Below the pieces are notes generated by a model. That model was not told the origin of the DNA. It did no database searches and saw only the letters and a program-made list of their open reading frames with translations. A stretch of DNA of 64,000 nt from Planctomycetota bacterium. GTDB taxonomy: Bacteria > Planctomycetota > MHYJ01 > WSZJ01. The number at the start of each line of letters is the position of its first letter. The first letter of the stretch is position 1. Below are positions 3,113 through 37,900 of this stretch, piece by piece. The translations under genes and the position numbers were made by a program. Location of the stretch: the NCBI GenBank assembly GCA_038060895.1, contig JBBTCT010000009.1, forward strand, positions 240,082 through 304,081, read 5' to 3'.

Positions 3113-3522
3113 CCCGTCACCTCCCACGAATCGCCGGCGTCGATGACCGTGAAGCGGCGAAGGTCCGCGGGGGGCGGCCCGGAGAGGCGGCGCCCCTCCG
3201 GGTCGAAGGTCCCCTTGTGACACGGGCATAGAAAGCGCTTCTCGGCGTCTTCCCACCGAACGATGCAACGGGCGTGAGTGCAGACGAGGGAGAGCGCGAC
3301 GGCGCCCGAGCCGGACACGACCAGGACGAAGGGCGTGCCTCGCAGGGAACCAGCCGCGCGTCCGCCCGCCACGGCCGACTTGGGGATGCGCGTCGTCGAA
3401 GGGGGTTCTTCGCGGGGCCACAGCGCCGCGCCTGCTGCCGCGGCGCCGCCCACGGCCGCGGTCGCGGCCCACGCCCCAAGGGCGCGATTGAGGAAATCTC
3501 TTCGGCTGGTCGGCTCGTCCAT
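3109..3522 (-). CDS. Rieske 2Fe-2S protein (Tat-exported)
   Basis: SRRDFL twin-arginine motif; CTHARC and CPCHKG cluster ligands; GPPP. Confidence 0.92.
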   Translation of the reverse strand: MDEPTSRRDFLNRALGAWAATAAVGGAAAAGAALWPREEPPSTTRIPKSAVAGGRAAGSLRGTPFVLVVSGSGAVALSLVCTHARCIVRWEDAEKRFLCPCHKGTFDPEGRRLSGPPPADLRRFTVIDAGDSWEVTG

Positions 3523-7795: not shown

Positions 7796-7840
7796 CCGTC
7801 CGCTTCGCCATCCGTCCGGAACTCACAATCGTTTAACACG

Positions 7841-21862: not shown

Positions 21863-23134
21863 ATGCTGCGGGCCGCTCTCATTGCCAGCCTTTCCGTGCT
21901 CAGTGCGCTCGTCGCGCGCGCCGAGAGCGCCATTCCTTCCGGCTTCGTCAAGGTCGAGAAGAACGGCGCCGTCCAGATTCACATGGCCAACGCCAAATGG
22001 ACGTCCAAGACGGAGTTCATGATCAAATTCAACGACCTGCAGAAATCGCTCAACGAGTTCTGGAAAGCGGACGTGGAATCTCTGAGCGCCGGGTCCAATT
22101 CGCGCTTCGAGGAGCGTGCGATTCCCAGGGTGGACCTCGTGATCTTCGACAACGAGGCGGATCACGATGACTTCATGATGAAGAACGGCGCGCCCGACGA
22201 TTCGCGCCCCGGTGCGCCGTCCGACACGGTCTACCTGATGCTCATCGACGGGAAAGTCAAGGGAGCCGGCTGGGAAGTTCTCGCGCGGCGGCTATCGAGG
22301 GCGTACGCGTGGCACGGCCTGTACTTCGGCCCTCCGCCCTGGCTCGATCGCGGCATGGCGGAGTACTTCGCTTTCGCGAACAAAGCGGTGAAACCGGCCG
22401 AATCGGAAGCGTATCTCGCAATGGTGGAGCGGTTGCACGAAGTGCAGACGCGCGGCGCGGAGAAACCGCTGGCCGACACGCTTTCCAACGCTGGCGAGAA
22501 CTGGACACGCGAGGATACCGACAACGCGTGGTGTCTCTGCCACGTGCTGATGACCGAGTGCAAGAACCTGGCGGTCGACCTGTGGGCGATTCTCAGCACG
22601 CAGCAGGGCTGCGCGTACGACCGGCGCGACGGCGTCATCAGTGACTCCCGGCGGCTTGTGAAGTACCAGCTCGAACGCGCGTTCGGCGGGACGGAGCCGC
22701 TTCAGGCCGGCTGGGACTGGCACCGCGACCAGGTGATCAAGGGCGGGGCGGGAATGGCGAGGCTGAAGAAGGCGCCTGGGTCGGTGCGGGACGCCACGGC
22801 GTTCATGGTCATCAGTTTTTCGGCTGTGGTGAAGTCGGCGAACTCGACGAGTCTGGAGACGGGCGGATTTTTCGCGTACAGCGGTCCCTGGCCCGGACCG
22901 ATCACGGTGACGGCGGCGCTCGCCGACAAATCGAAGTCCTTCGGCGGGGAAACGGAAATCGCCGGTGATCGATCGGACAAGCAGGGGACTCCGGCGAAAT
23001 GGAAAGAGAAGCGGATACCGGTGCCGGTGAGCTGGTGGAATGCGTTTCTTCGAGTGACGGTGAGGTGGGAAGTGGATGGCGGTGGGGTCTACCAGTTCTC
23101 CAGTGTGCGGGAGGTTTCGATCCCGAACCGGTAG
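21863..23134 (+). CDS. Secreted protein, degenerate gluzincin/DUF1570-like
   Basis: Signal peptide; PPWLDRGMAEYF resembles PxWLxEGxAEYF but HExxH is absent. Confidence 0.55.
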   Translation: MLRAALIASLSVLSALVARAESAIPSGFVKVEKNGAVQIHMANAKWTSKTEFMIKFNDLQKSLNEFWKADVESLSAGSNSRFEERAIPRVDLVIFDNEADHDDFMMKNGAPDDSRPGAPSDTVYLMLIDGKVKGAGWEVLARRLSRAYAWHGLYFGPPPWLDRGMAEYFAFANKAVKPAESEAYLAMVERLHEVQTRGAEKPLADTLSNAGENWTREDTDNAWCLCHVLMTECKNLAVDLWAILSTQQGCAYDRRDGVISDSRRLVKYQLERAFGGTEPLQAGWDWHRDQVIKGGAGMARLKKAPGSVRDATAFMVISFSAVVKSANSTSLETGGFFAYSGPWPGPITVTAALADKSKSFGGETEIAGDRSDKQGTPAKWKEKRIPVPVSWWNAFLRVTVRWEVDGGGVYQFSSVREVSIPNR

Positions 23135-23370: not shown

Positions 23371-23387
23371 GGGCACACCCTTTGCTT
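23371..23387 (+). promoter_or_regulatory. Candidate sigma54 (-24/-12) promoter
   Basis: GGGCACACCCTTTGCTT = GG-N10-GC with GGCAC and TTGC, about 50 nt upstream of the first FHA-CAP gene in an AT-richer spacer. Confidence 0.55.
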
Positions 23388-23437
23388 CCTCTGCCCCTCG
23401 CTCGTCCCTCTTTCCTCATCCTCACCGGAGACTCTTC

Positions 23438-26400
23438 ATGGTTCACCTGCTCGTGCGATTCGAAGGCGCCGAAGAGAAGTTCTCTTTCTCGCAGGACGTC
23501 ATCACACTGGGACGAGTCGCTTCCAACACGATCCAGGTCAAGGACGTCAAGGCCAGCCGCACTCACTGCGAGATCCGCAGAACGGATGCGGGCTGGAAAC
23601 TTGTGGACCTCGAGTCGTCGAACGGGACGACGGTCAACGGCACGAAGGTGAACACCCACGCTCTGGTCCCCGGCGACGTCCTGTCGATCGGCGCTTTCGA
23701 AATGGTTTTCGAGCCCGCCGAGGCCAGTGCCGTCAAGGTTCCTGAAAAGAAGCACGAGGAGCCGATTGAAAAGACCGTCGTGGACAAAGCTCCGTCCAAG
23801 GCTCATCCCCATCTTCATCACGCTGGCGCGGCATCGGAAGCCCCTGCGATGGCGGTTTCCGAGGCCGCTGCCAAGCGTCGTCTCACCTCAATCCTCGTCA
23901 AGAGCGGCGTCGCCGCCGCGGTCCTCATCGCGGGCGTCATCGCGCTGAACTCGATGCGCGGCGAGTGGGCCCGCCGGGACGCCCAGGAAGCCGCCTATAA
24001 TTCCGCGATCAAGCTCGCCGATGCCGGCGAACTCTCCGACGCCGTGACACGGCTCGAATCCTTCGTCAGCAGCAGGCCCGATTCCGATCTCGCGAAGAAA
24101 GCGTCCGCCAAACTGGGCGAGCTGAAAGGCGTCATCGCGAAGCGGACCGAAGAATCCGCCCGCCGGTTTGAAAAAGTCGTCGCAGAACTCCTGGCCCGCC
24201 AGCACGCCACCAGCGCCGCCGTCCGCTTCGACAGCGCGCGATCGCAGGTCGACGCCTACCTCTCGAGCGGCGATTTCTCCGCCGCCGTCGACGAGGCCAA
24301 GCGCTTCATGATGGATTACACCGAAGGCGAGTCGCACGACCGCATGGCGTCCCTGCTCAAGAAGGCCCTCGGCCTGGCCGCGACGGCCTGGGACGACCTG
24401 GAAGCCGAAGCCAACGCCCTCGTCAAGGCGGAGAGATACGCCGAGGCGACGGCCCTTCTCGCCGACGCGCAGGACCGCTTTGCGGGAACGCGCTACGGTT
24501 ACGAGGTCGCTTCCAAGGTCCGCGCCATCGGCCGCCTGTCGGGCGTGACCGCGGCCTACGCTTCCGGCGCCCCCGAAATGTCGGCCCAGGCGCAGGAATC
24601 GATGCTGGCCGTGTCGGACCTGGTGAAGGCGCGGCAGTACGCAGCGGCGCTGAAGGCGTACGACAAAGTGGTCGGCGCGATGGCAGAGAAGGAGCGCGCG
24701 GCCTTTGCGGCGCGGCGCGAGGACATCGCGCGCGAAGCCGGCATTTTCGGGAAGCTTCTCGCAGCGATCAACGACGGCGGCATGAAGGACTACGCGATCG
24801 ACCTCGGCGGCTCCGTGACCGGCCACCTGTCGCAGGCCTCGGACCTCGGCGTCACGATCGAGTTCAAGGACCAGACAGGGAAGGGCGGGACGACCGGACG
24901 CAAGTGGGTGCAGGTCCCGGGCGCCGAAATGCTGGCTTACTTCCGGCAGCTGAAGATGGACGCGATGGAACTGCTCGGGCTGGCGGCCTTCTGCTACGAC
25001 AACCGGCTGCCGCAGGACGGCGCGGACATCCTCAACGACCTCATCAAGGAGCAGGGCTCGATGCAGTCGCCGGCCTACCAGTTCATCGCCCGCGTCCGGT
25101 CCATGGGCGTGCCGAGCGACGGCTTCGTCTTCTTCGAGCGCGGCTGGTACACCCACACGGAATACCTGTACGCGAAGCTGGATTACAAGGCGAAGAAGGC
25201 CGCGACGATGATCGGGAAAATCGACGCGAAGCTCGCGGACCAGGGATATGCGATCTACCAGGAGCTGAAGGGCGACTCCACCCTCGAAGCGGAGTTCATG
25301 GCGAAGGCGACCGGGTACTTCCTGACGGCGCTTCAGGAGAAGCGCCAGGGGATCATGAACGGCCTGAAAAACTCTCAGAACATTGCGAATTTCAAGGCGC
25401 TTCAGGAACTCAAGAAAGAGCTGAACAAGCGCCGGGCCGCGGCGATCGCGATCATCTACGACAAGACGATTTATCCGGACGAGAACCACGGGATTGAAGG
25501 GCAGCCGAAGGTGGACGACGCGGTGGCGCTGGTGAGGGAGCTGTGGGACAAGCCGCTGGCGGTCGTGGCGCGGCTGGACGACGGCGTCCGGGTGCTGGTC
25601 GAGGCCGGCGAGAAGACGAACGCGTGGCTGAAGGAGATGGGGGAAGCGGGGGACGAGGCGGCGATGGAGGAGTACGAGCTGCTGCTGGGGCACGTCAACG
25701 AGACGCTGAACCTGAAGAACGTGTGCCTGGACAAGACGGAGCAGAAGCTGCGCGACTACAACAAGCGGGTTGCCGCCTACAACAAGACCGGCGGCGAGAC
25801 GCAGATGGTGGGCGTGGAGATCGAGTGCGCGAAGATCACGAACGAATACCGCGAGATGATGGGCCGTGCCTACCTGGAACTGGACGACATGCTCGGGAAG
25901 TGCGCGAAAAAGCACAGCCAGGAGATGATTGATCTCGCGTATTTCGCGCACGAGTCGCCGACGGCCCGGCTCCGGACGCCGGGCGACCGTGCGAAGGTAG
26001 AAGGGTATTTGGGGGGCGTGGGCGAAAACATCGCGATGGGTTACGGCGACGCGCGGTCGGCCTTCATGGGCTGGTACAACTCGAGCGGCCACCATCGCAA
26101 CATGCTTTCGGACAGCTGGAACCACATCGGCCTCGGCGCCATCGGCTCGATGTGGACGGAGAACCTCGGTCGCGGCACGAGTCATCTCGGCAGCAAGGCC
26201 GACGACGGCAAAGCTTCTGCGGGCGGGCCGAAACCGAAGAATCCGGTGCGCGCAGGCGTCGATGGACTGCCGACGCGCGGCGAGAAGGAGAAGGGCGCCA
26301 GCAACAAGCCGGCGGCCGGTGGCGACAAGTCCGCGGGAAAGGACCAGCCGGAGAGCCCGCACAAACAGCCTGACGGCAAATGCACGGGCACGACGCCGTA

Positions 26401-26470
26401 TGATGGGGGCATCGGGAACCAGGAAGGTGACGGGAAGAAGAAGGATGCCGGGTCCGAAGAAAAGAAATAG
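23438..26470 (+). CDS. FHA - TM - helical/TPR-like - CAP(SCP) domain protein, paralogue 1
   Basis: FHA motifs LGR, SRTH, DLESSNGT; one TM; CAP motifs HSQEM, YFAH, GENIA, WYNSSGHHRNML. Confidence 0.88.
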   Translation: MVHLLVRFEGAEEKFSFSQDVITLGRVASNTIQVKDVKASRTHCEIRRTDAGWKLVDLESSNGTTVNGTKVNTHALVPGDVLSIGAFEMVFEPAEASAVKVPEKKHEEPIEKTVVDKAPSKAHPHLHHAGAASEAPAMAVSEAAAKRRLTSILVKSGVAAAVLIAGVIALNSMRGEWARRDAQEAAYNSAIKLADAGELSDAVTRLESFVSSRPDSDLAKKASAKLGELKGVIAKRTEESARRFEKVVAELLARQHATSAAVRFDSARSQVDAYLSSGDFSAAVDEAKRFMMDYTEGESHDRMASLLKKALGLAATAWDDLEAEANALVKAERYAEATALLADAQDRFAGTRYGYEVASKVRAIGRLSGVTAAYASGAPEMSAQAQESMLAVSDLVKARQYAAALKAYDKVVGAMAEKERAAFAARREDIAREAGIFGKLLAAINDGGMKDYAIDLGGSVTGHLSQASDLGVTIEFKDQTGKGGTTGRKWVQVPGAEMLAYFRQLKMDAMELLGLAAFCYDNRLPQDGADILNDLIKEQGSMQSPAYQFIARVRSMGVPSDGFVFFERGWYTHTEYLYAKLDYKAKKAATMIGKIDAKLADQGYAIYQELKGDSTLEAEFMAKATGYFLTALQEKRQGIMNGLKNSQNIANFKALQELKKELNKRRAAAIAIIYDKTIYPDENHGIEGQPKVDDAVALVRELWDKPLAVVARLDDGVRVLVEAGEKTNAWLKEMGEAGDEAAMEEYELLLGHVNETLNLKNVCLDKTEQKLRDYNKRVAAYNKTGGETQMVGVEIECAKITNEYREMMGRAYLELDDMLGKCAKKHSQEMIDLAYFAHESPTARLRTPGDRAKVEGYLGGVGENIAMGYGDARSAFMGWYNSSGHHRNMLSDSWNHIGLGAIGSMWTENLGRGTSHLGSKADDGKASAGGPKPKNPVRAGVDGLPTRGEKEKGASNKPAAGGDKSAGKDQPESPHKQPDGKCTGTTPYDGGIGNQEGDGKKKDAGSEEKK

Positions 26471-26515
26471 CCAGGGCCGCGTTACGGCCCTAAAGACAAC
26501 CTTGAGGGAAATACC

Positions 26516-29419
26516 ATGAAGCTGGCGATTCGCGTGAACGGGCAGGTCCACGTTTTTGAAACCGATCAGCCTGCCGTGACGTTCGGGCGCTCCCCGGATT
26601 GCGCGATCCAGGTCGGCGACCAGGCCGCAAGCCGGCTTCACTGCCGGCTGGAATCGACGCCGGAGGGGTGGAAGCTTGTCGATCTCGAATCCTCAAACGG
26701 GACGTCGGTTAACGGCCAGCTCACCAACAGCCGCCTCCTCAGGGATGGCGACGTGATCTCGATCGGCGCCTTCTCCGCCGTTTTGAACCCGGCCGCCGTA
26801 ACGCCCGTCGCCGATCCCGTTCGACCACTGCCCGCAGGTCCGGTCGCGCAGGTCGCCCGCGTCGATCACGCCCAGCGGGTCGTGTCTTCCGGCGCTCGCC
26901 GCGAAAAGGACGGAGCGCGCGGCCTGGTCGTCTCAGGCCTGCTCGCGGCTTCGCTCCTCTTCGGAGGCGTCTGGGCCGTCAATCACTTCTATGGCGGCAA
27001 CAACACCGCGGAACAGCGCGCCACGCTCGAAAAGGCATCGCAGCTCGCGTCCAGGGGCGAGCTGGACTCGGCCGAAAAGGCGCTGATCGAACTCCTCAGC
27101 CACCCCGTCGGCTCGGACATCCATAAGGACGCCAAAAAGGCGCTCGCGGACATCCAGGGCAGAATCGCCACGCGCGACGCGAAGGCGAAGCAGGCCGCCG
27201 AGGCCGCCGAGTACGCCGCGGCTTCGACGAAGCGCGCCTCCGATCTCCAGGCCGAATTCGACAAGGCCACGGCCGACGCCGACGCTCTCGTCGTGCAGGA
27301 GGCGTACGGTCCGGCGCTCGACATCTGGAAGCGGTTCAACGCGGACAACCCCGGTTCGGCGCTGTCTGCGAAGGCGGACGCCCGTCTCGCCGAGGTGATG
27401 AAGTCGGTCCAGGATGCCTGGGACGTCCTTGAGAATCGCGCCAACAGTCTTGTGAAGATGGAGGAAACGTCCGCCGCCGCGGCCCTCGTCGGGTCGTCAA
27501 TCGAGAAGTTCCAGGGCACGCGCTTCCAGTTCTCCGCGCAGGACAAACTCGCCGCCCTGAACCGCCTTGCGGGGCTGGGCACCGATGTTGCCGGGACCGG
27601 CTCCAAGCTTTCCTCCAGGACCCAGGACTCCCTTCTCACCGTGCTCGACCTCGTCAAGGCCCGCCGTTACGCGCAGGCCCTTCGCGAAATCGACGGCGTG
27701 CTGTCGGGCGCCGCCGCGGCCGAGAAGGCGAGCCTGGAAGCGCAGCGTGCGGAGATCGCTTCGCAGGCCGCCCTGTTCGGCAAGCTGGTGGACGCCGTGA
27801 ACGGCGGCTGGTTCAAGAGCCGCCCGCTCCAGCTGGCCAACGACATGAGCGCATACCTCGTGACCGCGACCGAGGACACCCTCTCGATCGACTTCCGCGA
27901 CGAGGCAGGCAAGGGCGGGACGACTTCGAAGCGCTGGCACCAGGTCGAGGCCGAAGACATGGTCGGCTACTTCCGGTCGCTGGACCTCAGCTCCGCCGAC
28001 CAGCTCTCGCTCGCCGCCTTCTGCTACAGCAACGCGATGAATTTCACCGCCGCCGAAGTGCTTTACGCCCTGATCCGCAAAGATGCTTCCCGCCAGGCCG
28101 CCGCCTTTGAGCTCGTGGCGCGCCAGCGCGGGATCGCCGTGCCGCAGAACGGATTCCAGTGGTACGAGGGCGGGTTCTACACGCAGGAAGAACTGAAGTT
28201 CGCGAAGCTCGAAGTGGACGCCAAGAAAGGCGCCCAGCTCGTGGCGCAGTCGGATCCGAAGAAGGCCGCTGAGGGGTACGCGCTGTACCAGCGGGTGATG
28301 GCGGACCCGTCCGGCTCGGCCGACCAGAAGGCCCGGGTGAAGGCCCAGTACATGAGCGCCGTCAAGACCCGGAAGGCGGCCCTGCTGAAGAAGCTCCAGG
28401 ATCCGACGGGCGTCGCCAGCGCGATTGCGATGCGCGAGGTGAAGAAGGAGCTGAATGAGCGGCGAGAGGAAGCTCTTCGCCTGATTTTCGACAAGGGGAC
28501 CTATTCGGACGAAGACAAGGGCCGGTCCGGGCAGTCGAAGGTGAATTCGGCGGTCGCGGCCGTCAAGGAGTTGTGGGACAACCCGATGCCGTGGGCCTCG
28601 AAGTCGGTCAAGTCGATCGCGGACCTGGTGAGCGGCGTCGAGCAGTCCAACGAGTGGCTGCGCAGCATGGGCGCCCCGGCGTCCGAGACCGATCCGTCCG
28701 CCGTCTCGTCGGCGTTGTCGGCCGCGGGAGCCGCTATGAATCTGCGCGAGTTCTGCATGACGGCCACGGAACGCATGCTTCTCGATCGTCACAAGGCCGT
28801 GACCGCGTACAACGACGGGCTCAGCGGATTCGAACTTCCGGAAAAGGCCTGCATCCGGGCGATCAACGACTATCGCTTCATGATGGGCCGCGCGGATCTC
28901 GAAGCGCAGGTGCAGCTGGGGACCGCGGCCCGGCAGCACGCTTCCAATATGCACGAAGCCAAGTACTTCTCGCACGAGGGGCCGTTGGCGAGTCGCAAGT
29001 CGCCCGCGGACCGCGCGCGCTACGCCGGTTATCCGGGCGGCGTGATCGGAGAGAACATCGCACAGGGCGTCGAGAGCGCCGGTTCGGTCTTCGAGGCCTG
29101 GTACAACTGGAGCACCTATCACCGGAACATGCTCAGCGACCTCTACACGCAGGTCGGCGCCGGCAAGTCCTGGACGCTCTGGACGGTTGACTTCGGCCGC
29201 GGCGGGTCCGCGATGGGCGCGACGGTAGCGGGCAAGGGCAAGGGCGGTTCCAAGGGGGGCAACCGCGATGGCGGCGGCGCTTCGGGCACCTCCGGCACTT
29301 CGGGCGGCTCCTCGAGCCGTGGCGGAACCAGCGGAAGCAGTGGCGGAATGACAGGTGGAACGAGGGGTGGAGTCGCAGGCGGAGTTGCAGGTGGTTCAAC
29401 CGGCGGCGGAGGATGCTGA
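26516..29419 (+). CDS. FHA - TM - helical - CAP domain protein, paralogue 2 (Gly-rich tail)
   Basis: FGR, SRLH, DLESSNGT; TM; HASNM, YFSH, GENIA, WYNWSTYHRNML; G/S/T tail ending in Cys. Confidence 0.88.
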   Translation: MKLAIRVNGQVHVFETDQPAVTFGRSPDCAIQVGDQAASRLHCRLESTPEGWKLVDLESSNGTSVNGQLTNSRLLRDGDVISIGAFSAVLNPAAVTPVADPVRPLPAGPVAQVARVDHAQRVVSSGARREKDGARGLVVSGLLAASLLFGGVWAVNHFYGGNNTAEQRATLEKASQLASRGELDSAEKALIELLSHPVGSDIHKDAKKALADIQGRIATRDAKAKQAAEAAEYAAASTKRASDLQAEFDKATADADALVVQEAYGPALDIWKRFNADNPGSALSAKADARLAEVMKSVQDAWDVLENRANSLVKMEETSAAAALVGSSIEKFQGTRFQFSAQDKLAALNRLAGLGTDVAGTGSKLSSRTQDSLLTVLDLVKARRYAQALREIDGVLSGAAAAEKASLEAQRAEIASQAALFGKLVDAVNGGWFKSRPLQLANDMSAYLVTATEDTLSIDFRDEAGKGGTTSKRWHQVEAEDMVGYFRSLDLSSADQLSLAAFCYSNAMNFTAAEVLYALIRKDASRQAAAFELVARQRGIAVPQNGFQWYEGGFYTQEELKFAKLEVDAKKGAQLVAQSDPKKAAEGYALYQRVMADPSGSADQKARVKAQYMSAVKTRKAALLKKLQDPTGVASAIAMREVKKELNERREEALRLIFDKGTYSDEDKGRSGQSKVNSAVAAVKELWDNPMPWASKSVKSIADLVSGVEQSNEWLRSMGAPASETDPSAVSSALSAAGAAMNLREFCMTATERMLLDRHKAVTAYNDGLSGFELPEKACIRAINDYRFMMGRADLEAQVQLGTAARQHASNMHEAKYFSHEGPLASRKSPADRARYAGYPGGVIGENIAQGVESAGSVFEAWYNWSTYHRNMLSDLYTQVGAGKSWTLWTVDFGRGGSAMGATVAGKGKGGSKGGNRDGGGASGTSGTSGGSSSRGGTSGSSGGMTGGTRGGVAGGVAGGSTGGGGC

Positions 29420-29480
29420 GGGCAGTAACACCCCGCCGGCAGTTGCCGGCAACGGAACGCACGAGACCGAAACTTAACTG

Positions 29481-29518
29481 GCGCACCCCGGAGGCGGAAG
29501 ACGCCTCCGGGGTTGCGC
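29481..29518 (+). other. Stable intergenic hairpin
   Basis: gcgca-ccccggaggcg gaaga cgcctccgggg-t-tgcgc with no U-tract. Confidence 0.6.
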
Positions 29519-29545
29519 TTCAAGAAAAGCGGAGAAAGCCACGTC

Positions 29546-32263
29546 ATGATTCGCCTTCTCATCCGGACGGGTGGGCAGAGCCGCGAGCTCTCCTTCGACG
29601 GGGCCGTCGTCAACTTCGGAAGCGGCGCGGAGTGCAAGGTCTGCGTGGACGATCCTCAGGCCGATGCGGAGCAGTGCCGCATTGAAAAGGTCCCCAACGG
29701 CTGGAAGCTCGTTGACCTCGAATCCACGAACGGCACGTCCGTGAACGGTGCCGTCGTGAACGCCCGCCTGCTCAAGGACGGCGACGTTATCCGCATCGGG
29801 GAGTTCGAGGCCGTGTTCAACCCGGGCGGCGCCTCCAGGACAGGCAAGCCGTCGCGCGCCGCGGCCCGCGCGGGAGCCGACGCCATGTTCTGGATCAAGA
29901 CCGGCGGCGTCGCGGCCGCTGTCCTGATCGCCACGGTCGTCGGCATCAAGGTTTTCGTCGGCGACGACAAGGCCGCCGCCCAGCGCGATTCCCTGAAGGC
30001 CGCACAGCAGACGGCCGGTAACGGCGACCTTGAGGCTGCCGAAGCGGCCATCAACGCGCTCCTTTCGGCGCCCATCGACCCGGGCGTCCAGCGTGATGCA
30101 AAGAAATCGCTCGACGACGTGCGCGCGAAGATCGCCTCCCGCAATGAAAGGGAACAAAGGGAACTGGAAGCGGCGATTGCGGCCGAGGAGGCCCGGCGGC
30201 GCGCAGACGAATTCCGGGTTCTGTTTGACGAGGCGACGACCGAGTCCGACCGCCTCGTCGTGCAGGAGAATTTCGGCGAGGCTCTGAACGTCTGGAAGAG
30301 CTTCGCGCGGGAAACGACGGACGCGGAATTCGCTTCAAAAATCGACGGACGCACGAAGGAAGTGCTGAAGGCTTCGCAGGACGCGTGGGATGCGCTGGAG
30401 ACGCGCGCGAACAGTCTGGTGAAAATGGAGGAGTATCCCCAGGCGGCGCTGGCGGTGGCGGCGGCCATCGAGAGATTCCAGGGAACGCGTTTCCGCTACC
30501 GCGCCCAGGAGAAGCTCGAGGGGATCCGCCGCCTGATGGGTGTGACGTCGGCGTACGTCGCCGGCGGCGCGAGCCTTACCGCCGGGGCGCAGGACTCCCT
30601 GCTCGCGATCGACGACCTCGTCAAGGCTCGCCGGTACGGGCAGGCGCTTCGCCAGATCGACGGCCTCCTCTCCTCGGTCACCGCCGACCATTCGGCGGCG
30701 CTTCGGGCCCAGCGCGCAGAAATCGCCGCGCAGGGAGAGTTGTTCGGAAAACTGGTGGCTGCCGTGAACAACGGCTGGTTCACGTCGCACCCGATCGAGC
30801 TCGGAAACGGAACCAGGGCCATCCTGGCGAAGGCGAACGACGAGGTTCTCGACGTCGAGTTCAAGGACGAGGAAGGGAAGGGCGGGACGTCTTCGCGGAA
30901 GTGGCCGCAGGTGGATGCGGAGGACATGCTCGGGTACTTCCGCGCGATCGAACTCGGGCCTGAGGACACGATCGCGCTGGCGGCGTTCTGCTACAGCAAC
31001 GGGCTCACCTTCGCTGGCGCGGAAATTCTGAGCGCAGCGATCGCTTCGGACCCCTTGAAGAAGCCGGCCGCGTTCGAGCTCGTCGCGCGCCACCGCGGCA
31101 TCCCGATTCCCGACGGCGGATTCGTCTGGTACGAGGGCGGCTGGTACACCAGCGAAGAACTGAAGTTCGCGAAGCTCGACCTGGACGTGAAGAAGGCGGC
31201 CCTGCTGCTCGGGAACATCGACGCGAAGAAGGCGGCGGAGGGGATGGCTCTGTACCGCCGCGCGACGAGCGACCCGTCGGCAGGGACCGAAGTGAAGTCG
31301 AAAGCGGTGACGCTCTGCGTCGGCGCCCTCAAGACGCGCCGGACGGCGATCCTGCGGAGGCTGCAGGACAGCCGGGGGCTCGTGAATCCCGCGGTGATGA
31401 CTGCGCTCAAGAAGGACCTGATCAAGCGTCGCCAGGCGGCCATCAAGGTCATCTTCGACGTGAAGATTTACCCCGAAGAGAATCACGGAATCGTCGGGCA
31501 ACCGACCGTGGACGCCGCCGTTGGAAAGGTTCGTGAGCTCTGGGACAACCCGCTTCAGGTGGTTTCGAAAGCAAATCCCGCGATTGAAAACATGATCGCC
31601 GCGAGCCAGCAGACGGACGACTGGCTGCGAGAGCTCGGCGCTTCCGCGACCGAAGCGGAGAAGGCCCTCGTGGCCAAGCTGCTGCTTCAGGTGAACGACG
31701 CGCTCAGCCTGAAGAACTACTGCATCAGCGGAAACGAGCGCTCCCAGCTCGAGAAATTCCGGGCCATCATGTCGTACAACGACCGCCATCTCGGCTTCGA
31801 CTCGCGCGAGAAGGACTGCATCCGGGCCACCAATGAGTACCGCTTCATGCTGGGAATCCAGGCCGTGGAAGCGCAGGACCAGCTGGGCCGCGCGGCGCGT
31901 AAGCACAGCGTGGAGATGGAGAAGCTCGGGTACTTCGCGCACGTCGGGCCGACGAAGGGCCTTGCGACGCCTGGCGAGCGGTGCGCAGCGGAAGGGTATG
32001 GCGGCGGCGGGGCCGAGAACATCGCCATGGGGAACGTCGAGGGAGAGCCGACGTTCCTGCAGTGGTACAACTCGAGCGGCCACCATCGCAACATGCTGGG
32101 CGGCCACACGCAGATCGGCATCGGCCGTTCGAACAACTACTGGACCGAGAACTTCGGCTCCAGCGGACCCTCGATGAAGGACAAGACCTCCGACGCGGGC
32201 GTCAAAGGTGCAAGTGTCGCGGGCGGTTCGACGGGCGGAGTGACCTGCGAAGACGGAAGGTAA
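29546..32263 (+). CDS. FHA(degenerate) - TM - helical - CAP domain protein, paralogue 3
   Basis: GGAG RBS; FGS and DAEQ replace GR and SxxH, DLESTNGT kept; HSVEM, YFAH, AENIA, WYNSSGHHRNML. Confidence 0.88.
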   Translation: MIRLLIRTGGQSRELSFDGAVVNFGSGAECKVCVDDPQADAEQCRIEKVPNGWKLVDLESTNGTSVNGAVVNARLLKDGDVIRIGEFEAVFNPGGASRTGKPSRAAARAGADAMFWIKTGGVAAAVLIATVVGIKVFVGDDKAAAQRDSLKAAQQTAGNGDLEAAEAAINALLSAPIDPGVQRDAKKSLDDVRAKIASRNEREQRELEAAIAAEEARRRADEFRVLFDEATTESDRLVVQENFGEALNVWKSFARETTDAEFASKIDGRTKEVLKASQDAWDALETRANSLVKMEEYPQAALAVAAAIERFQGTRFRYRAQEKLEGIRRLMGVTSAYVAGGASLTAGAQDSLLAIDDLVKARRYGQALRQIDGLLSSVTADHSAALRAQRAEIAAQGELFGKLVAAVNNGWFTSHPIELGNGTRAILAKANDEVLDVEFKDEEGKGGTSSRKWPQVDAEDMLGYFRAIELGPEDTIALAAFCYSNGLTFAGAEILSAAIASDPLKKPAAFELVARHRGIPIPDGGFVWYEGGWYTSEELKFAKLDLDVKKAALLLGNIDAKKAAEGMALYRRATSDPSAGTEVKSKAVTLCVGALKTRRTAILRRLQDSRGLVNPAVMTALKKDLIKRRQAAIKVIFDVKIYPEENHGIVGQPTVDAAVGKVRELWDNPLQVVSKANPAIENMIAASQQTDDWLRELGASATEAEKALVAKLLLQVNDALSLKNYCISGNERSQLEKFRAIMSYNDRHLGFDSREKDCIRATNEYRFMLGIQAVEAQDQLGRAARKHSVEMEKLGYFAHVGPTKGLATPGERCAAEGYGGGGAENIAMGNVEGEPTFLQWYNSSGHHRNMLGGHTQIGIGRSNNYWTENFGSSGPSMKDKTSDAGVKGASVAGGSTGGVTCEDGR

Positions 32264-32387
32264 AGTAAAAGTTCGGTAGAAGACGCTTGATTTCACCCCC
32301 GGGCGGGGTTCACAATAGCGCAGGGCGATTCGCAGCCGGCCACTACGGACGGCCCGAATACGCTGCAAAAAAAAGGGAGTGCGGCGC

Positions 32388-34034
32388 ATGACCAAGCAGA
32401 GGCTCTTCCTCGGGGCGCTGGGCCTCGTCCTGGCCCTCGCGATCCCGCTCGCGGCCGGGCCGTCCGGCGCCGAGTGGGACCAGATGAAGAAGGACTTCTA
32501 TCGCGACTTCGCCAACGCCGACATGGGCGTGAAGAAGTCCGCGCTGGAGCGCATCGCCGCGGTCAACACCGCCGATGCCGGCAAACTCCTGATCTCCGTG
32601 TACGGCGCGATCAAGCGCGACACGGACGCCCAGGAAAAGAAGATCCAGGTGGAAATCGACGACCTGGAGAACACGCTGAAGTCGTTGCGCAAGAATCCCT
32701 CCGCTCTTTCCGCGGGCGAGCAGGACCGGAAAGCGAAGCTGGAAGCGCAAGTGAAGGTGCAATCCGATGCCATCCAGAAGATCAAGAACGAGTCGAAAAA
32801 CCTGCTGGACACGATTGCCGGAGCAATCGGGAAGTTCACCGATCCGGCAGCGGTCGCCGAACTGCGGGCCCTGGTCATCAACAAGAACTCGGACTGGGCC
32901 GACCGGTACGCGGTTCTGTCCGGCCTCATCTCCGCCAAGTCGTCCGGCGTCGGCTCGATCTGCCTCGAAGCCGCGAAGGATTCGGACCCTCGGGTTCGCA
33001 TCCTCGCCCTCGATGCTCTTCTGAACCTGGACGAATGCAAGGCCGCCGAGTCGCTCTTCGTGACGGCCATCGAAGACCCCGCTCAGTGGCAGATCCGCCT
33101 CTGCGGCGTGTCGGGTGCCGAGAAGCTCCGCAGCAAGAACGGCATCGCCGCGATGATCCGCCAGCTCAAGAAGGAAGACGGTCGCCTTCGTGACGACATC
33201 TCCGGCGCGCTGAAGCGCATGATCGGGATGGATTTCGGCTACAACGCGCTGTCGTGGGAAGAGTGGTGGAAGACGAACGGCGACAAGTGGGACGGTAAGC
33301 CGATCGGCGGTGGCGCGACTGCAGGGAAGACTGAAAAGTCCCCCGGCGGCGCTCCGGGTGGAACCACGACCGAACCGCCGACGTTCTTCGGCCTCAAGAT
33401 CACTTCCAAGAAAATCGTCTTCGTCCTCGACGTCTCCGGCTCGATGCTCGACCCGAGCGCTCCGCCGGAAGGCGCTGACAAGCCGCCGCCGGTGGTCTCA
33501 GGCGGCGGGAACGGCCCGGCGCCGGCCCCGTGGGAGCCTGGCCTGAAGGGCGCGAAAATCGATGTCCTGAAGTACGAGTTCGAGAAGACGATGAACAAGC
33601 TGGAAGTCAAGACGACGTTCAACATCATCGTCTTCAGCGACAACCCGCTTCAGTGGAAGGACAAGATGCAGACGGCGACGCCGCCGATCAAGGCCGAGGC
33701 GATCGACTTCGTGAAGAAGCAGGCCGCCGCCGGCTCGACGAATACGGGCGACTCGCTCGAGAAGGCGTTCGAGCTCGCGGGGAACGGGTTGCACGACAAG
33801 TCATACGCCGCGCTCGTGGACACGATCTACCTCATGTCCGACGGGATGCCGTGCGCCGGCAAGTGGCCGACCCCGGACGAAGTCATCAAAAAGGTGCGGG
33901 AGTGGAACGTCCTCTCGAAGGTCATCATCAACACCGTCGGCATGGGCGACAAGGCCCTTGGCCCCGGCAACTTCAACGGGCAGTTCCTGCAGTCGCTTTC
34001 GCAGATGACGGGCGGGATTTTCGTGAAGCGGTAG
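32388..34034 (+). CDS. Secreted HEAT-repeat + von Willebrand A domain protein
   Basis: Signal peptide, coiled coil, HEAT repeats, WEEWW; PTFFG then MIDAS residues DVSGS, T (GSTNTG) and D (MSDGMP). Confidence 0.88.
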   Translation: MTKQRLFLGALGLVLALAIPLAAGPSGAEWDQMKKDFYRDFANADMGVKKSALERIAAVNTADAGKLLISVYGAIKRDTDAQEKKIQVEIDDLENTLKSLRKNPSALSAGEQDRKAKLEAQVKVQSDAIQKIKNESKNLLDTIAGAIGKFTDPAAVAELRALVINKNSDWADRYAVLSGLISAKSSGVGSICLEAAKDSDPRVRILALDALLNLDECKAAESLFVTAIEDPAQWQIRLCGVSGAEKLRSKNGIAAMIRQLKKEDGRLRDDISGALKRMIGMDFGYNALSWEEWWKTNGDKWDGKPIGGGATAGKTEKSPGGAPGGTTTEPPTFFGLKITSKKIVFVLDVSGSMLDPSAPPEGADKPPPVVSGGGNGPAPAPWEPGLKGAKIDVLKYEFEKTMNKLEVKTTFNIIVFSDNPLQWKDKMQTATPPIKAEAIDFVKKQAAAGSTNTGDSLEKAFELAGNGLHDKSYAALVDTIYLMSDGMPCAGKWPTPDEVIKKVREWNVLSKVIINTVGMGDKALGPGNFNGQFLQSLSQMTGGIFVKR

Positions 34035-34054
34035 TCTTGTACCCGGCAACACTG

Positions 34055-34089
34055 GGACCGGCCGCCTGCGAGGGCGGCCGGTTCTTTTT
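34055..34089 (+). terminator. Rho-independent terminator
   Basis: ggaccggccgcc-loop-ggcggccggttc followed by TTTTT. Confidence 0.75.
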
Positions 34090-34151
34090 CCGGGCGCGGA
34101 TCACCGCCCCGGGTATCTTGATGTCCCCGGCACTGGGAGCTTGTCTTCACC

Positions 34152-35684
34152 GTGAGTGACGCTGCCAAGCAGGTCAAGATCTCGCCCGACACCGTCGAGG
34201 GGTACACCCTTCAGCAGCCCCTTGGACAGGGCTCTACCGGCTCCGTATTCAAGGCGAAGCGGACGTCCGACGGAGCGATGTTCGCGATCAAGCTGATTTT
34301 CCCTGCGCTCTCGAAGAAATCCGACTTCAACGCCAAGTTCGTCCGCCTCGCGCAGATCGGCGGCAAGGTCGATCACCCGAACATCGTCAGGACGATCGCT
34401 TCAGGCATCTCCAACGGATTCCATTTCGTCGTCATGGAGCACGTCGAGGGCAAGACGCTCGAGAGCGTGCTTTCGCGCGGCGCGATGGACGAACAGCGCG
34501 CCCTCCAGATCGTCCTGTCGGTGGCCCGGGCGCTGAAGCACGCGCAGGATGCCGGCGTGGTGCACCGTGACGTCAAGCCCGCGAACATCCTGTTGCCGCG
34601 AGGCGGGGAAGCGAAGCTGGCGGACCTCGGGCTCGCCATCATGGCGACGAATCCGAAGCTGGTCGGGGGCGCGACAGGGACGCCGCACTACATGTCCCCG
34701 GAGGCTGCCCGCAGCGACGCCAATATCGACGTTCGCTCCGACATCTACAACCTCGGCGCCACGCTTCATCACATGCTCACGGGCCAGACACTGTTCACCT
34801 TCAACAACATCGCCGAGATCGTGGCCGGGCATCTCTCCGAGCAGCCCAAGGCCGCGAACAAGGTCAATGCGACCGTTTCGAAGGGTGCCTCGAAGCTCGT
34901 CCAGCGCATGACGGAGAAAAAAGCGCAGGACCGCCCCTGGCCTGCCGACGTGATCGGGTTCGCCGAGGCCCTCCTGCGCGGCGACAAGCCCTTCGAGTCG
35001 GTCGGCGGGCGTCCATCGCGAGCCAAGTCGCAGGAAGCCGAACCCCGGATTTCCAAGGATTCCCCGACGCCCGCGATGCCTCCACCCGCACTTCAGATAC
35101 CTCTTCCGAACCGCGTGAGCAACCCATACGAAGAGACGATTTCGACGCCGATGCCTTCGAGCGGGAAAGGGGCGCCCGGCCGCTCCCCGGCACCGCATCC
35201 TTCGCCCTATCCGCCGGCGCCGCCGGTGGCGCCGCCAGCGGCTCCAGGGCCGCCGCCCGGTCATCGGCACCCGAATACGGCCTATCCGACGCCTCCGGCG
35301 CAGCAGCCCGGGCAGGGGCCGCCGTCGTGGCCGCCGCAGCCCGCGCCGCCCCCGGGCCGCGCTCCGTCGGGTTATCCTTCGCCCTATCCCCCCGCGGCGC
35401 CCTATCCGCCGCCGTACCCGCCCCAGGGCTACCCGCCTCCTCCGTACGGGTATCCGCCGCAGGCGCCGCCGCCACAGGGCTACCCACCGCAGGGGTATCC
35501 CCCGCAAGGCTACCCGCCCCAGGGGTATCCGCCGCAGGGCTACCCGCCCCCTGCCGCCCCACCCGGCACGCCGGCGCAACCGCCACCCTCCCAGCCGCCC
35601 GCACCGCCGGCAGCGAAGCCTCCGAAAAAGGGGCCGCCCAAGGGAAAGCGGCATATCGGGCGGCGATGGGGCGACCTGATTTAG
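34152..35684 (+). CDS. Hanks-type Ser/Thr protein kinase, soluble, with Pro/Tyr/Gln-rich tail
   Basis: LGQGSTG, AIK, HRDVKPANIL, DLG, GTPHYMSPE, SDIYNLG; no TM seen; GYPPQ repeats. Confidence 0.93.
   Translation: MSDAAKQVKISPDTVEGYTLQQPLGQGSTGSVFKAKRTSDGAMFAIKLIFPALSKKSDFNAKFVRLAQIGGKVDHPNIVRTIASGISNGFHFVVMEHVEGKTLESVLSRGAMDEQRALQIVLSVARALKHAQDAGVVHRDVKPANILLPRGGEAKLADLGLAIMATNPKLVGGATGTPHYMSPEAARSDANIDVRSDIYNLGATLHHMLTGQTLFTFNNIAEIVAGHLSEQPKAANKVNATVSKGASKLVQRMTEKKAQDRPWPADVIGFAEALLRGDKPFESVGGRPSRAKSQEAEPRISKDSPTPAMPPPALQIPLPNRVSNPYEETISTPMPSSGKGAPGRSPAPHPSPYPPAPPVAPPAAPGPPPGHRHPNTAYPTPPAQQPGQGPPSWPPQPAPPPGRAPSGYPSPYPPAAPYPPPYPPQGYPPPPYGYPPQAPPPQGYPPQGYPPQGYPPQGYPPQGYPPPAAPPGTPAQPPPSQPPAPPAAKPPKKGPPKGKRHIGRRWGDLI
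35472..35549 (+). repeat. 15-nt coding tandem repeat (PQGYP x5)
   Basis: Synonymously diverged repeats ccacagggctaccca/ccgcaggggtatccc/... inside the kinase tail. Confidence 0.85.
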
Positions 35685-35764: not shown

Positions 35765-37900
35765 CTACTTAGCGTCGAACGAATGCGCGAAGGGCTTGTA
35801 CTCCGCAACCGTGTCCGCTTCGACCTTCGCCTTTTTCAGCACTTCGATCACGGCACGCTGGGCCTGCGTGTCGGCATTCAGGTCCACCAGGAATTCACGC
35901 TTCCGGTCGTCCGCGACCCGTTTGCGGACGAGCTGCCGCACCAGCTGGGCGATTTCTGCCGCCTCCGCCTTTGATTTCAGCGTCGAGATAAGGCCCGGGA
36001 AGAGCGGGTAGGCACTCGGGTCCGCCACCGTCTCGTCCGCGAGCCTGGTAAACAGGTCCTTGTTCTCGTCGTAGTTCGCGGTGAGGTAGTCCTCCAGCTT
36101 TCCCGAATCCAGAATCTTCGCGAATTCAAATTCCTTCCAGAGATCCCGCTCCGGCAGCTTCACCATGATTTCCGGGATGACTCCGCCCTCGGCCTTCTCA
36201 TCAACCTTGCCGTAACGGTCGCGCTCGATGTGGATCGACCGTCCGCTGGGAAGGTAGTACTTCGCGAACGTGTACTTGAAGGCCGTGTTCTTGTCCGTCT
36301 TCAGCCCCTGGATCCGCTGCACGGAGCCTTTGCCGTAGCTGCGCTCGCCGAGCGTGACGGAGATTTCGAAATCCTGAAGCGCGCCCGACATGATTTCCGC
36401 CGCGCTCGCGCTTCCCTCGTTGATCAGCACCGCAACCGGCAGGTTGAACGAGTCTTCACCCGTGCTCTTGAGCTCGTCGAGGATTTTCCCGTCGCGGTCC
36501 TTCGTCGTGCAGATGACTTTCCCTGCGGGGACAAAGCGGTCCACCATTTTCACGACTTCGCCGAGCAGACCGCCGGGGTTGTTCCGGAGATCGATGATGA
36601 GCGCGATGGCGCCGTCCTTGGTGAGCTGGTCCATCGCCGCGCGCATTTCAGTGTTGGTGTCGCCGCCGAAGGAATTGATCTGGATGAAGCCGACCTTGCC
36701 CGGAAGCATCTCGGAGGGAGCGGTGCGGATCGTGATCTGCTCGCGGCCCAGCGTGAACTCGCGGGGCTCGGCCCATCCGCGGCGGACCACCTTGAAGCGG
36801 ACGTTCGTCCCCGGCTCGCCCTTGAGGCGCGACACGCAGTCTTCCAGCGGCAGCTTGTACGTCGATTTCCCCTCGATCTCGACGATGCGGTCGAGCGAAC
36901 GCAGCCCGGCACGGTAGGCCGGCCCGCTGTACACCGGCCGTTCGATCGTGAGCCAGTCGTCCCGGCCCGAAACGTGGGCTCCGACTCCTCCGTACTTCTT
37001 GTTGATCCCCTCCGTCAGCTCCCTGAGGTCCTTCTCGCTCAGGTACACGCTGTACGGGTCCAGAGTTTCCGCAATCCCGCGAGCAGCGCCCTCGATCAGC
37101 GCCTTCCTGTCCGCCTTCGTCTTGTCGACGTAGCTTCCCTCGATGAGCTTGATCATCTCGTCGAGAAGCGCGTACTCGCCTCCGCCGGCCGCGGGGCCCA
37201 CGACCTTGCGAGCGACGCTGTCAACCAGCTCCTTGTGCTTGATGTGCAGGCGGGCCAGCGCTCCCTTTTCACCCGGCTCCGAGGCCATCTGCTTCAGGAT
37301 CGGAAGAGCTGAATCGAAGTCCTCGAGATCCGCGAGCGCGAGCGCCGCTTCCTTGCGAACCTCCCCATCTTTCGCCTTCAGGAGCTTTTTCAGTTCGTCG
37401 AAGGCGCGGATGCTGTTCGAGATGCGGAAGAGCGCGCGGGAGAGGGCGATGATGAACCGCTGGTCGTCTGCGTTGTCGATCGCTTCGTCGATGACGCTCC
37501 CGATTTCCTTGCGGTCGCCGATGTTCGTGTCGGTGCGCGTCAGGTCGGCGAGGAGATCCGCCGAAGTCCGCCGGACGTCCTTCTCTTTTTCGCCGAGGAG
37601 CGACACGAGCGCCGCCACGGCTTCTTTCTTCTCTCCGCAGCGGTACAGCGCCTTGGCCACGCCCATGCGGACTTTCGCTTCCGGCGCTTTCAACGCCTCG
37701 GTCAACGGACCGACGGCCTCCGGCCCGAGCTGCTCCATCTCAGAAACCAGCCGCCAGAACTCGTGGCCTTTCGCCGACGGCAGCTGGTCCACCCTCGACT
37801 TGACTTCCTCGGCGGTGTCCGCGGAGGCGTTCCCGGCAAAGACGACCAGGAGGGCCGAAAGGGCGACGGACGAGAGCAGACATGCGCGCAACCTGGTCAT
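35765..37900 (-). CDS. ctpA: C-terminal processing protease (S41A, PDZ) with N-terminal HEAT repeats
   Basis: LDPYS, PDZ, IIDLRNNPGG, SASAAEI (catalytic Ser), SYGKGSVQ (Lys); signal peptide and HEAT repeats. Confidence 0.9.
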   Translation of the reverse strand: MTRLRACLLSSVALSALLVVFAGNASADTAEEVKSRVDQLPSAKGHEFWRLVSEMEQLGPEAVGPLTEALKAPEAKVRMGVAKALYRCGEKKEAVAALVSLLGEKEKDVRRTSADLLADLTRTDTNIGDRKEIGSVIDEAIDNADDQRFIIALSRALFRISNSIRAFDELKKLLKAKDGEVRKEAALALADLEDFDSALPILKQMASEPGEKGALARLHIKHKELVDSVARKVVGPAAGGGEYALLDEMIKLIEGSYVDKTKADRKALIEGAARGIAETLDPYSVYLSEKDLRELTEGINKKYGGVGAHVSGRDDWLTIERPVYSGPAYRAGLRSLDRIVEIEGKSTYKLPLEDCVSRLKGEPGTNVRFKVVRRGWAEPREFTLGREQITIRTAPSEMLPGKVGFIQINSFGGDTNTEMRAAMDQLTKDGAIALIIDLRNNPGGLLGEVVKMVDRFVPAGKVICTTKDRDGKILDELKSTGEDSFNLPVAVLINEGSASAAEIMSGALQDFEISVTLGERSYGKGSVQRIQGLKTDKNTAFKYTFAKYYLPSGRSIHIERDRYGKVDEKAEGGVIPEIMVKLPERDLWKEFEFAKILDSGKLEDYLTANYDENKDLFTRLADETVADPSAYPLFPGLISTLKSKAEAAEIAQLVRQLVRKRVADDRKREFLVDLNADTQAQRAVIEVLKKAKVEADTVAEYKPFAHSFDAK

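Follow-up and report, generated by a model that had tools for sequence, protein, structure and literature searches.

A 64,000-nucleotide stretch of a Planctomycetota bacterium genome (contig JBBTCT010000009.1, positions 240,082 to 304,081), called the window here, carries five open reading frames (ORFs) that all lie on the + strand between 23.4 and 35.7 kb. The first three encode tandem paralogs that we call FC1, FC2, and FC3. The fourth encodes a HEAT-vWA protein, and the fifth encodes a Hanks-type Ser/Thr kinase (Table 1). An earlier note on this DNA described the paralogs as co-directional FHA-transmembrane-CAP proteins, the fourth product as a secreted HEAT and vWA protein with a metal ion-dependent adhesion site (MIDAS), and the fifth as a soluble kinase. 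Those descriptions are confirmed. Specifically, ORFs, Pfam, hydropathy, and alignment recover the three paralogs (905-1010 amino acids [aa]), and hidden Markov model scans uphold every FHA, CAP, VWA, and Pkinase call. Position 23371, at which the range in the note begins, does not start a gene; the FC1 ATG is at 23438. An in-frame TTG at 29513 would lengthen FC3 to 916 aa, and the ATG at 29546 aligns with the N termini of the other FC proteins. For the HEAT-vWA gene, an alternative GTG start at 32379 would yield 551 aa.

Table 1. Features of the FC locus, with positions in nucleotides of the window.
Feature	Position	Strand	Basis
FC1, FHA-transmembrane-stalk-head-CAP paralog 1 (1010 aa)	23438..26470	+	ORF, Pfam, hydropathy
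FC1 FHA domain	23501-23692	+	
FC1 EKTVVD motif, aa 111-116 (Thr113), in disordered, predicted cytoplasmic linker	23768..23785	+	ortholog conservation
FC1 transmembrane helix	23891-23947	+	
FC1 CAP domain	25838-26140	+	
FC1 Cys-containing peptide in disordered, predicted periplasmic tail	26357..26407	+	ortholog conservation
FC2, paralog 2 (967 aa)	26516..29419	+	ORF, Pfam, hydropathy, AlphaFold2 model
FC2 FHA domain	26576-26767	+	
FC2 transmembrane helix	26924-26980	+	
FC2 head	27818-28840	+	
FC2 CAP domain	28856-29164	+	
FC3, paralog 3 (905 aa from ATG)	29546..32263	+	ORF, Pfam, hydropathy
FC3 degenerate FHA domain	29612-29800	+	
FC3 transmembrane helix	29903-29959	+	
FC3 CAP domain	31823-32137	+	
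Secreted HEAT-vWA protein (548 aa from ATG)	32388..34034	+	ORF, Pfam, hydropathy
HEAT region	32883-33062	+	
vWA domain	33414-34019	+	
MIDAS motif DVSGS	33429-33443	+	
GC-rich hairpin and T-run, terminator-like, between HEAT-vWA and kinase genes	34055..34090	+	folding energy, conservation
Soluble Hanks-type kinase (510 aa)	34152..35684	+	ORF, Pfam, hydropathy
Kinase domain	34203-34943	+	
Kinase Leu66	34347-34349	+	
Kinase Pro-rich tail		+	
Kinase C-terminal IGRRWGDLI	35655-35681	+	
HEAT-PDZ-S41 C-terminal processing peptidase, convergent with kinase	35765..37900	-	Pfam/NCBIfam

The three FC proteins share one plan. Identity to FC1 is 37% for FC2 and 40% for FC3, FC2 and FC3 share 45-46% identity with one another, and the sequence blocks pointed out earlier (GKGGT..(R/K)(K/R)W.QV, LAAFCY.N, and GF.(W/F)(Y/F)E.G(W/F)YT..E) are all present in the paralog alignment. 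With Pfam calls defined as matches above the curated cut-offs, all three possess an FHA domain (PF00498; E 2.5e-13 to 2.7e-17, 50.7-63.4 bits versus a cut-off of 20.7) and a CAP domain (PF00188; E 3e-9 to 1e-12, 38.2-49.4 bits versus 21.1). The NCBIfam OdhI and FhaB models match the FC FHA domains. The CAP domains are related to the YkwD subfamily and lie outside of it, scoring 51-64 bits on TIGR02909 against a cut-off of 171. A Kyte-Doolittle scan, which is not a dedicated topology predictor, finds a single hydrophobic helix per protein, as had been described (residues 152-170 in FC1, 137-155 in FC2, and 120-138 in FC3). Given this lone helix, a topology with the FHA domain in the cytoplasm and the CAP domain in the periplasm is plausible.

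An AlphaFold2 model of FC2, built on an alignment of 88 homologs, has a mean pLDDT (predicted local distance difference test) score of 87.2. In the model, an FHA sandwich (residues 1-90) is followed by a disordered linker (97-142) and the transmembrane helix (139-157). The predicted periplasmic part consists of a stalk made entirely of helices (164-429), a head of mixed structure (~435-770) in which the conserved sequence blocks lie, and the CAP domain (774-908), and the protein ends in a disordered Gly/Ser-rich tail. Foldseek matches the FHA fold to GarA and OdhI (TM-score 0.76-0.89, 32-35% identity) and the CAP fold to Bacillus anthracis 4ifa and Borrelia BB0689 4d53 (TM-score 0.80), with 4h0a matched as well; the CAP sequence also matches 4ifa (E 7.4e-6). 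The head is another matter. Modeled alone (435-775), it reaches a pLDDT of 88.8 and has no fold match in the PDB (0 at E ≤ 0.001), no significant sequence match there (the best is a xylanase, E 0.0028), and scores of only 0.76-0.78 against a protein atlas, under the level of a lead. By these models, the head is a family-specific domain without an assigned fold class. Residues R650, R787, H808, H820, R833, E846, N847, W862, R870, and G881, all in the head and CAP regions, are invariant in the 88 homologs, a pattern that points to a conserved periplasmic site for a ligand or partner. Among the cavity-type His/Glu residues of the CAP domain, H808, H820, E846, and N847 are invariant and H869 is nearly so; these presumably map onto the canonical CAP tetrad.

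FC proteins are not rare. At a threshold of E ≤ 1e-30, an exhaustive profile search recovers 1,182 representative clusters; among its best 150 matches, most are 850-1,100 aa long. A tiny family had been considered because a word-based search returned only 25 proteins; the exhaustive search shows that number to be a limit of sensitivity, and we rejected the idea. Those 25 include 21 clear relatives, labeled Planctomycetota metagenome-assembled genomes (MAGs) where they are named. Protein names, all of them generic, accompany three of ten representative homologs: one is a YkwD/FHA name (JGI), and two read "FHA domain-containing protein [Planctomycetota bacterium]." No cultured host was found among the family members with names, all of which belong to uncultured Planctomycetota. 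For the comparison of gene neighborhoods, we used 45 loci from species-representative genomes (given L numbers below). The titles of 44 identify them as Planctomycetota, Planctomycetia, Planctomycetales, or Brocadiia MAGs, and the remaining one, L044, matches over only 60 FHA residues. The segment composed of the pre-CAP helices and the CAP domain also exists on its own, as judged from six loci (L017, L022, L023, L026, L030, and L039) encoding proteins of 380-490 aa that match FC only at ~590-905 and possess neither FHA domain nor stalk. The short gene of L026 is immediately preceded by a HEAT-vWA-like gene.

The strongest pattern in the neighborhoods concerns the HEAT-vWA gene. When loci are grouped by genome, the window and its nearest relatives make up a close clade of eight genomes (the window, L001+L008, L002, L003, L004+L006, L005, L009+L007, and L010). 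The order FC genes, HEAT-vWA, kinase is kept in all eight, and in all eight the HEAT-vWA gene lies directly downstream of the last FC gene, which is the third in six genomes and the second in L005 and L010. In distant loci, defined by 25-34% identity to FC1, HEAT-vWA adjoins FC in 7 of 15 cases (L012, L013, L014, L016, L020, L021, and L028, the last with two copies); L029 and L040 were left out of this count because they end in the second FC gene. Every one of the 15 strong HEAT-vWA profile matches in the 45 loci (E ≤ 2.6e-18) adjoins an FC or CAP gene, and the L002 copy was detected by tblastn only. In the FC tree, loci with the adjacency fall on either side of the midpoint root. Because the two genes stay together in the close clade, in 7 of the 15 distant loci, and in both branches of the tree, FC and HEAT-vWA are a conserved core that has been lost or relocated in some lineages. 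Thus, of the gene linkages that the earlier note had drawn, that between FC and HEAT-vWA extends past close relatives, whereas linkage to the orthologous kinase is confined to the close clade.

The HEAT-vWA protein matches Pfam HEAT_2 (E 1.3e-6) and VWA_3 (E 3.2e-8). Its HEAT part resembles PBS-HEAT and alphaRep repeats, and its vWA part resembles the vWA domains of ITIH and alpha2-delta proteins. The MIDAS D-x-(S/T)-x-S, T, and D elements are conserved in 13 of 13 homologs, two of which carry D-x-T-x-S. By hydropathy, the N terminus has a signal-like segment that is conserved among homologs, and it has no lipobox cysteine. A co-fold of the FC ectodomain with this protein, which the earlier note had called for, gives a weak pass: FC2 435-908 with HEAT-vWA 25-548 scores 0.57, 0.61, and 0.00 in three runs (median 0.57), and the best of three controls scores 0.00. 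In calibration, the mark was attained by 58 of the 80 complexes with solved structures and by 2 of the 110 pairs that were mismatched, and scores of 0.60 or below held only 7 of the 80 complexes plus both passing mismatches, counts that apply only roughly here since the co-fold used its own alignments. Contact agreement among the runs was at least 0%, and partner pLDDT was at least 77. We take the co-fold as a weak increment on the linkage evidence that FC and HEAT-vWA may bind one another. The possibility that HEAT-vWA shares a HEAT docking module with the HEAT-PDZ-S41 peptidase encoded beyond the kinase was dropped (best BLASTP E 0.25).

The three paralogs appear to have diverged in function. 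FHA domains contact phosphate through residues of the Gly-Arg, Ser-x-x-His, and Asn-Gly type. In the alignment, GR, SRxH, and NG are kept in FC1, FC2, their orthologs, and distant homologs, which argues that these proteins do read phosphothreonine (pThr). In FC3, GR has become GS or GT and SRxH has become D(A/E/P)E(Q/H) in five of the five orthologs that have an N terminus. A quick IQ-TREE phylogeny rooted at the midpoint places the FC1 orthologs in one clade and FC2/FC3 in its sister clade, and the second copies of L010 and L005 branch ahead of the FC2/FC3 split (SH-aLRT 91-100). This branching suggests two successive duplications inside the close clade. Since the second copies of the two-copy genomes L005 and L010 retain GR, SRxH, and NG, it was probably after the second duplication that FC3 lost pThr reading. 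Most distant relatives have one copy, and independent tandem copies occur in L018, L029, and L040.

FC1 carries a feature of its own. Its linker is variable except for EKTVV(D/E), which is kept in eight of eight FC1 orthologs. A Thr with an acidic residue at +3 (pT-x-x-D) is a classic FHA target, and because Thr113 of FC1 fits that pattern, we nominate it as a candidate phospho-acceptor and FHA docking site. The tails differ too: P(D/E)G(K/P)C.G..P(Y/F) is retained in the FC1 tail in eight of eight orthologs, and GGSTGG is kept near the C termini of FC2 and FC3.

The kinase is a confident match to PF00069 (E 7e-47, 160.4 bits versus a cut-off of 31.7), and the Kyte-Doolittle scan finds no hydrophobic helix in it. 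Aligned to PknB, it retains the catalytic Lys (AIK), HRD, and DLG, and it has Leu66 where PknB has the αC Glu of "rrEaq." Leu or Val occupies this position in all eight cluster-linked orthologs; of the other kinases encoded at the fetched loci, six of six have the αC Glu. Lacking this residue, the kinase may have weak activity or unusual regulation, or it may be a pseudokinase. The protein closes with a long, low-complexity tail rich in Pro and then the basic peptide KGKR(Q/H)IGRRWGD(L/I)(I/L), which is conserved in six of six complete orthologs and probably serves for docking or membrane binding.

Between the HEAT-vWA and kinase genes, the terminator proposed in the earlier note is real, in that a hairpin with a T-run is present (-29.8 kcal/mol, z -3.5), with an equivalent in eight of eight orthologous loci; the pattern scan that covered the region does not list it. 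With this conserved element ahead of it, the kinase gene is probably a separate or attenuated transcription unit. The note had extended separate transcription to the HEAT-vWA gene as well, on account of a sigma70 promoter, TTGATT-18-CACAAT. That string is indeed present at 32287-32316, but it agrees with the consensus at just 8 of 12 positions, and the promoter scan yields 0 sites in the region. We rejected it as a promoter. Past the conserved hairpin and ahead of the kinase start codon, the window (34090-34150), L003, L006, L007, and L008 have in common the motif (G)TATCTT...GG(C/T)ACTGGGAG, and it may represent the kinase's own promoter plus ribosome-binding site.

We propose the following inside-out model, which we hold tentatively, at a little less than an even chance. 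FC proteins would be bitopic inner-membrane scaffolds whose cytoplasmic N-terminal FHA domains read pThr marks. On the periplasmic side, each would extend a helical stalk of ~270 residues, the family-specific head, and the YkwD-type CAP domain, and the CAP domain would bind an envelope polymer. The secreted HEAT-vWA protein would dock on the head or CAP domain via its MIDAS site or its HEAT repeats. In the close clade, the two duplications would have produced three specialized copies: FC1 with a competent FHA domain plus a TxxD-type motif in the juxtamembrane linker (EKTVVD, Thr113), FC2 with a competent FHA domain, and FC3 with the phosphate-contacting residues gone. The FC1 linker would be phosphorylated, most likely at Thr113, by a Ser/Thr kinase, which in this clade is probably the soluble one encoded alongside, and the FHA domain of FC1 or FC2 would bind the phosphorylated linker in trans. 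The notion is that FC proteins clustered in this way would interact differently with the envelope through their periplasmic CAP/vWA part. Our observations concern domain content, conservation, gene linkage, and residue patterns; for topology, Thr113 phosphorylation, FHA-linker binding, FC-vWA binding, and the envelope ligand, we infer from those observations.

For the polymer, the analogy is to DalA. DalA (RSP_1200) is described in passages of PMC10470522 as a divisome-associated CAP-type lipoprotein of Rhodobacterales that binds peptidoglycan non-covalently, and, with FC, it shares a periplasm-facing CAP/YkwD-type domain. It is the only functional precedent that we found for a bacterial CAP domain in the envelope, and it alone suggests peptidoglycan as the ligand. 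The two proteins are otherwise dissimilar: DalA is an outer-membrane lipoprotein (a model of 169 positions) with no FHA domain, transmembrane helix, stalk, or head, whereas FC has an internal transmembrane helix, an N-terminal FHA domain, and no lipoprotein signal.

The logic of the model resembles the threonine phosphorylation pathway of the T6SS (type VI secretion system), and the architecture of FC resembles that of GltG, considered below. P. aeruginosa PpkA, the T6SS kinase, carries a vWA domain. In the PpkA-Fha-TssL/PppA pathway, as set out in PMC3953482 and PMC3224232, a Hanks kinase writes pThr on a membrane component, and an FHA protein reads the mark and triggers envelope assembly. 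At the FC locus, by contrast, the FHA domain sits on the membrane protein, the vWA domain is on a separate, secreted protein, and the kinase is soluble; Pfam scans of the window ORFs detect no T6SS core families. By fold and sequence, the nearest FHA domains are those of GarA/OdhI and of the mycobacterial FhaA/FipA-PknB module. In GarA and OdhI, a flexible segment adjoining the FHA domain of the same protein contains a phospho-acceptor Thr, and the proposed Thr113 of FC1 resembles it. GarA and OdhI are, however, small soluble metabolic regulators, while FC proteins are membrane proteins of ~900-1,000 aa with periplasmic domains. No membership test beyond the individual domains places the locus in a known system, and this leaves FHA/kinase-type envelope control with an undescribed architecture.

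Several observations weigh against the inside-out model. The HEAT-vWA gene is not adjacent to FC in 8 of the 15 distant loci (L011, L015, L018, L019, L024, L025, L027, and L041), and the co-fold pass is weak, with one of three runs at 0.00. The EKTVVD motif is confined to FC1 of the close clade, and the linkers of L011-L014 share no visible motif. The FC CAP domains score 16-45 bits on the DalA equivalog model NF052539, far below its cut-off of 200. Pfam scans of the window ORFs reveal no PP2C phosphatase. The remaining contrary points concern the kinase, and they lead to the alternative that FC and HEAT-vWA form an envelope module beside which the kinase is a mere syntenic neighbor. The FHA domain would then read marks made by other Planctomycetota kinases or bind a partner without phosphate. 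We consider this combination unlikely, though it is a serious contender. It accounts for the hairpin that separates the two genes in every orthologous locus and for the missing αC Glu. It also fits the absence of an orthologous kinase beside all 12 distant FC loci, where the kinases that do occur are TPR- or WD40-fused or otherwise unrelated and lie in varying positions. In addition, the S41, UbiA, and U32 genes downstream and a gene for a 1,464-aa membrane protein upstream are likewise conserved in the close clade only, as plain synteny predicts. Evidence on the other side is that kinase adjacency persists down to 50-60% FC identity (L005 and L010) despite the changed FC copy number; the L010 ortholog was missed by tblastn and found by Pfam and blastp. 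Moreover, a tblastn search of the 64-kb window with this protein as the query detects no other kinase, and a kinase lies within 5 kb in 4 of the 12 distant loci, a raw count low enough to be read against a kinase partnership as well. For the earlier proposal of a phosphorylation-controlled CAP/vWA assembly, the domain calls and the FC/HEAT-vWA linkage hold, and the kinase linkage does so solely within the close clade.

A signal could also run from the outside in. In that case, the CAP domain and head, with HEAT-vWA as co-receptor, would detect an envelope or external ligand, and the ligand would alter FC oligomerization such that the output is the recruitment or release of a cytoplasmic phosphoprotein by the FHA domain. 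This reading draws on the same evidence of architecture and linkage, the clustering of invariant residues in the periplasmic head and CAP domain of the 88 homologs is as expected of a ligand site, and in L011 the gene after FC encodes a response regulator. However, FC has no conserved output protein beside it, and the conserved TxxD motif on FC1 itself better fits regulation of FC than signaling by FC. The direction of signaling cannot come from sequence alone, and, on balance, we judge the outside-in arrangement improbable.

We also entertain a bolder version of the inside-out model, in which FC and HEAT-vWA constitute a bacterial adhesion or tethering device akin to integrins. Phosphorylation of the FC1 linker, read by the FHA domains of FC1 and FC2, would cluster a heteromeric stalk; the MIDAS-vWA/CAP head would switch between gripping and releasing peptidoglycan or some other layer of the envelope; FC3, whose FHA domain is dead, would be a spacer or regulator that does not respond; and the S41 protease might trim the conserved motifs at the C-terminal tails. 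Taken together, these steps make for a long shot. If they were true, Planctomycetota would gain a kinase-controlled coupling of inner membrane and wall.

Alternatively, FC could be a structural part, as GltG and YscD/PrgH are, of some larger machine that spans the envelope and serves motility, secretion, or tethering; the FHA fold would then be a scaffold contact and not a pThr reader. GltG, of the Myxococcus xanthus Agl-Glt machine, possesses a cytoplasmic N-terminal FHA domain, one transmembrane helix, and a long periplasmic extension that contacts periplasmic partners, and the machine employs a MIDAS-type vWA adhesin, CglB (PMC11761067; PMC9946355). YscD/PrgH/EscD proteins of the type III secretion system (T3SS) similarly combine a cytoplasmic FHA fold, a single transmembrane helix, and a periplasmic domain. 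The Pfam Yop-YscD_cpl model scores FC above its cut-off (36-50 bits versus 33.2), the T3SS FHA structure 4d9v is among the FC2 fold matches, the GltG model matches weakly, and the polytopic 1,464-aa membrane protein is encoded upstream in the close clade. GltG terminates in a TonB-CTD-like domain and works with the AglRQS motor, whereas FC terminates in head and CAP; CglB is an outer-membrane lipoprotein, in contrast to HEAT-vWA with its lipobox-free N terminus. On the GltG model NF033760, FC reaches 25-47 bits against a cut-off of 650, and the match is restricted to the FHA region. FC likewise has none of the periplasmic ring-building domains of YscD/PrgH/EscD. Pfam scans of the window and of the distant-locus neighbors find no MotA/TolQ-like motor, secretin, ATPase, or other machine genes, those of the window find no T3SS genes, and FC1, FC2, and the distant homologs retain the residues that contact pThr. 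We regard membership in such a machine as very unlikely. Finally, a vWA-centered conflict or defense system (a vWA-MoxR ternary system or a vWA-kinase-phosphatase triad) has next to no chance of being correct and was rejected: vWA, FHA, and kinase domains do recur in such systems (passages of PMC7159879), but PADLOC returns generic kinase models for the kinase, one marginal match for FC3 (HEC-01B, E 1.3e-4), and nothing for FC1, FC2, or HEAT-vWA, the window harbors no MoxR AAA+, PP2C, or effector domain, HEAT-vWA has a signal-like N terminus, and the cluster sits amid housekeeping genes with its order and content stable across genomes.

Regarding the wider surroundings, the rest of the window consists of ordinary chromosomal genes, among them those for LepA, signal peptidase, cytochrome b, Pst/PhoU, a histidine kinase, and a MacB/HlyD pump, and Pfam scans detect no secretion genes there. 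The HEAT-PDZ-S41 peptidase gene occupies the same position in L002, L003, L007, L008, and L010 and is near none of the distant loci. It is a syntenic neighbor of doubtful membership in the system. Because the disordered, presumably periplasmic FC tails carry conserved terminal motifs, they could be substrates of this tail-specific S41 protease.

Upstream, the 1,464-aa protein (16396-20790, +) has dozens of hydrophobic segments. Its only match, to the SCO7613 C-terminal domain model, is under that model's cut-off. The gene also lies upstream of FC1 in L002-L005 and L009, and it is absent from the distant loci. Between a GDSL lipase gene and FC1 lies a 423-aa ORF (21863-23134, +) with a signal-like N terminus and no family match. 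It has no tblastn match in any locus, and in L002, L003, and L009 the GDSL gene directly precedes FC1, so this ORF looks like a lineage-specific insertion. A second FHA family occurs in close-clade genomes (L031-L035 and L038) and not in the window. Its members are 725-1,036 aa long, lack the CAP part, and share 39-49% identity with FC1 in the FHA domain, which is likewise N-terminal (match coordinates ~10001-10330, or 2881-3156 and 7685-7960); in L031, L033, and L038, a kinase lies ~6 kb downstream.

Signaling by FHA domains and Hanks kinases to envelope complexes is established in the T6SS, in mycobacterial wall synthesis, and in gliding motility, so control of this type is already known. 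What is undescribed is the FHA-transmembrane-CAP protein with its HEAT-vWA partner. As the earlier note had surmised, no characterized system with this architecture, and no paper characterizing it, was found in the openly accessible full-text literature. Planctomycetota have an unusual envelope and very many kinases, and, to our knowledge, bacterial CAP domains have almost no assigned function. The paralog set lends itself to a testable dissection, as it supplies a copy with a candidate phospho-site, two competent readers, a dead reader, and a MIDAS partner. If the inside-out model is true, it would provide a bacterial role for CAP domains, and it would show how cytoplasmic phosphorylation is relayed across the inner membrane without a membrane kinase.

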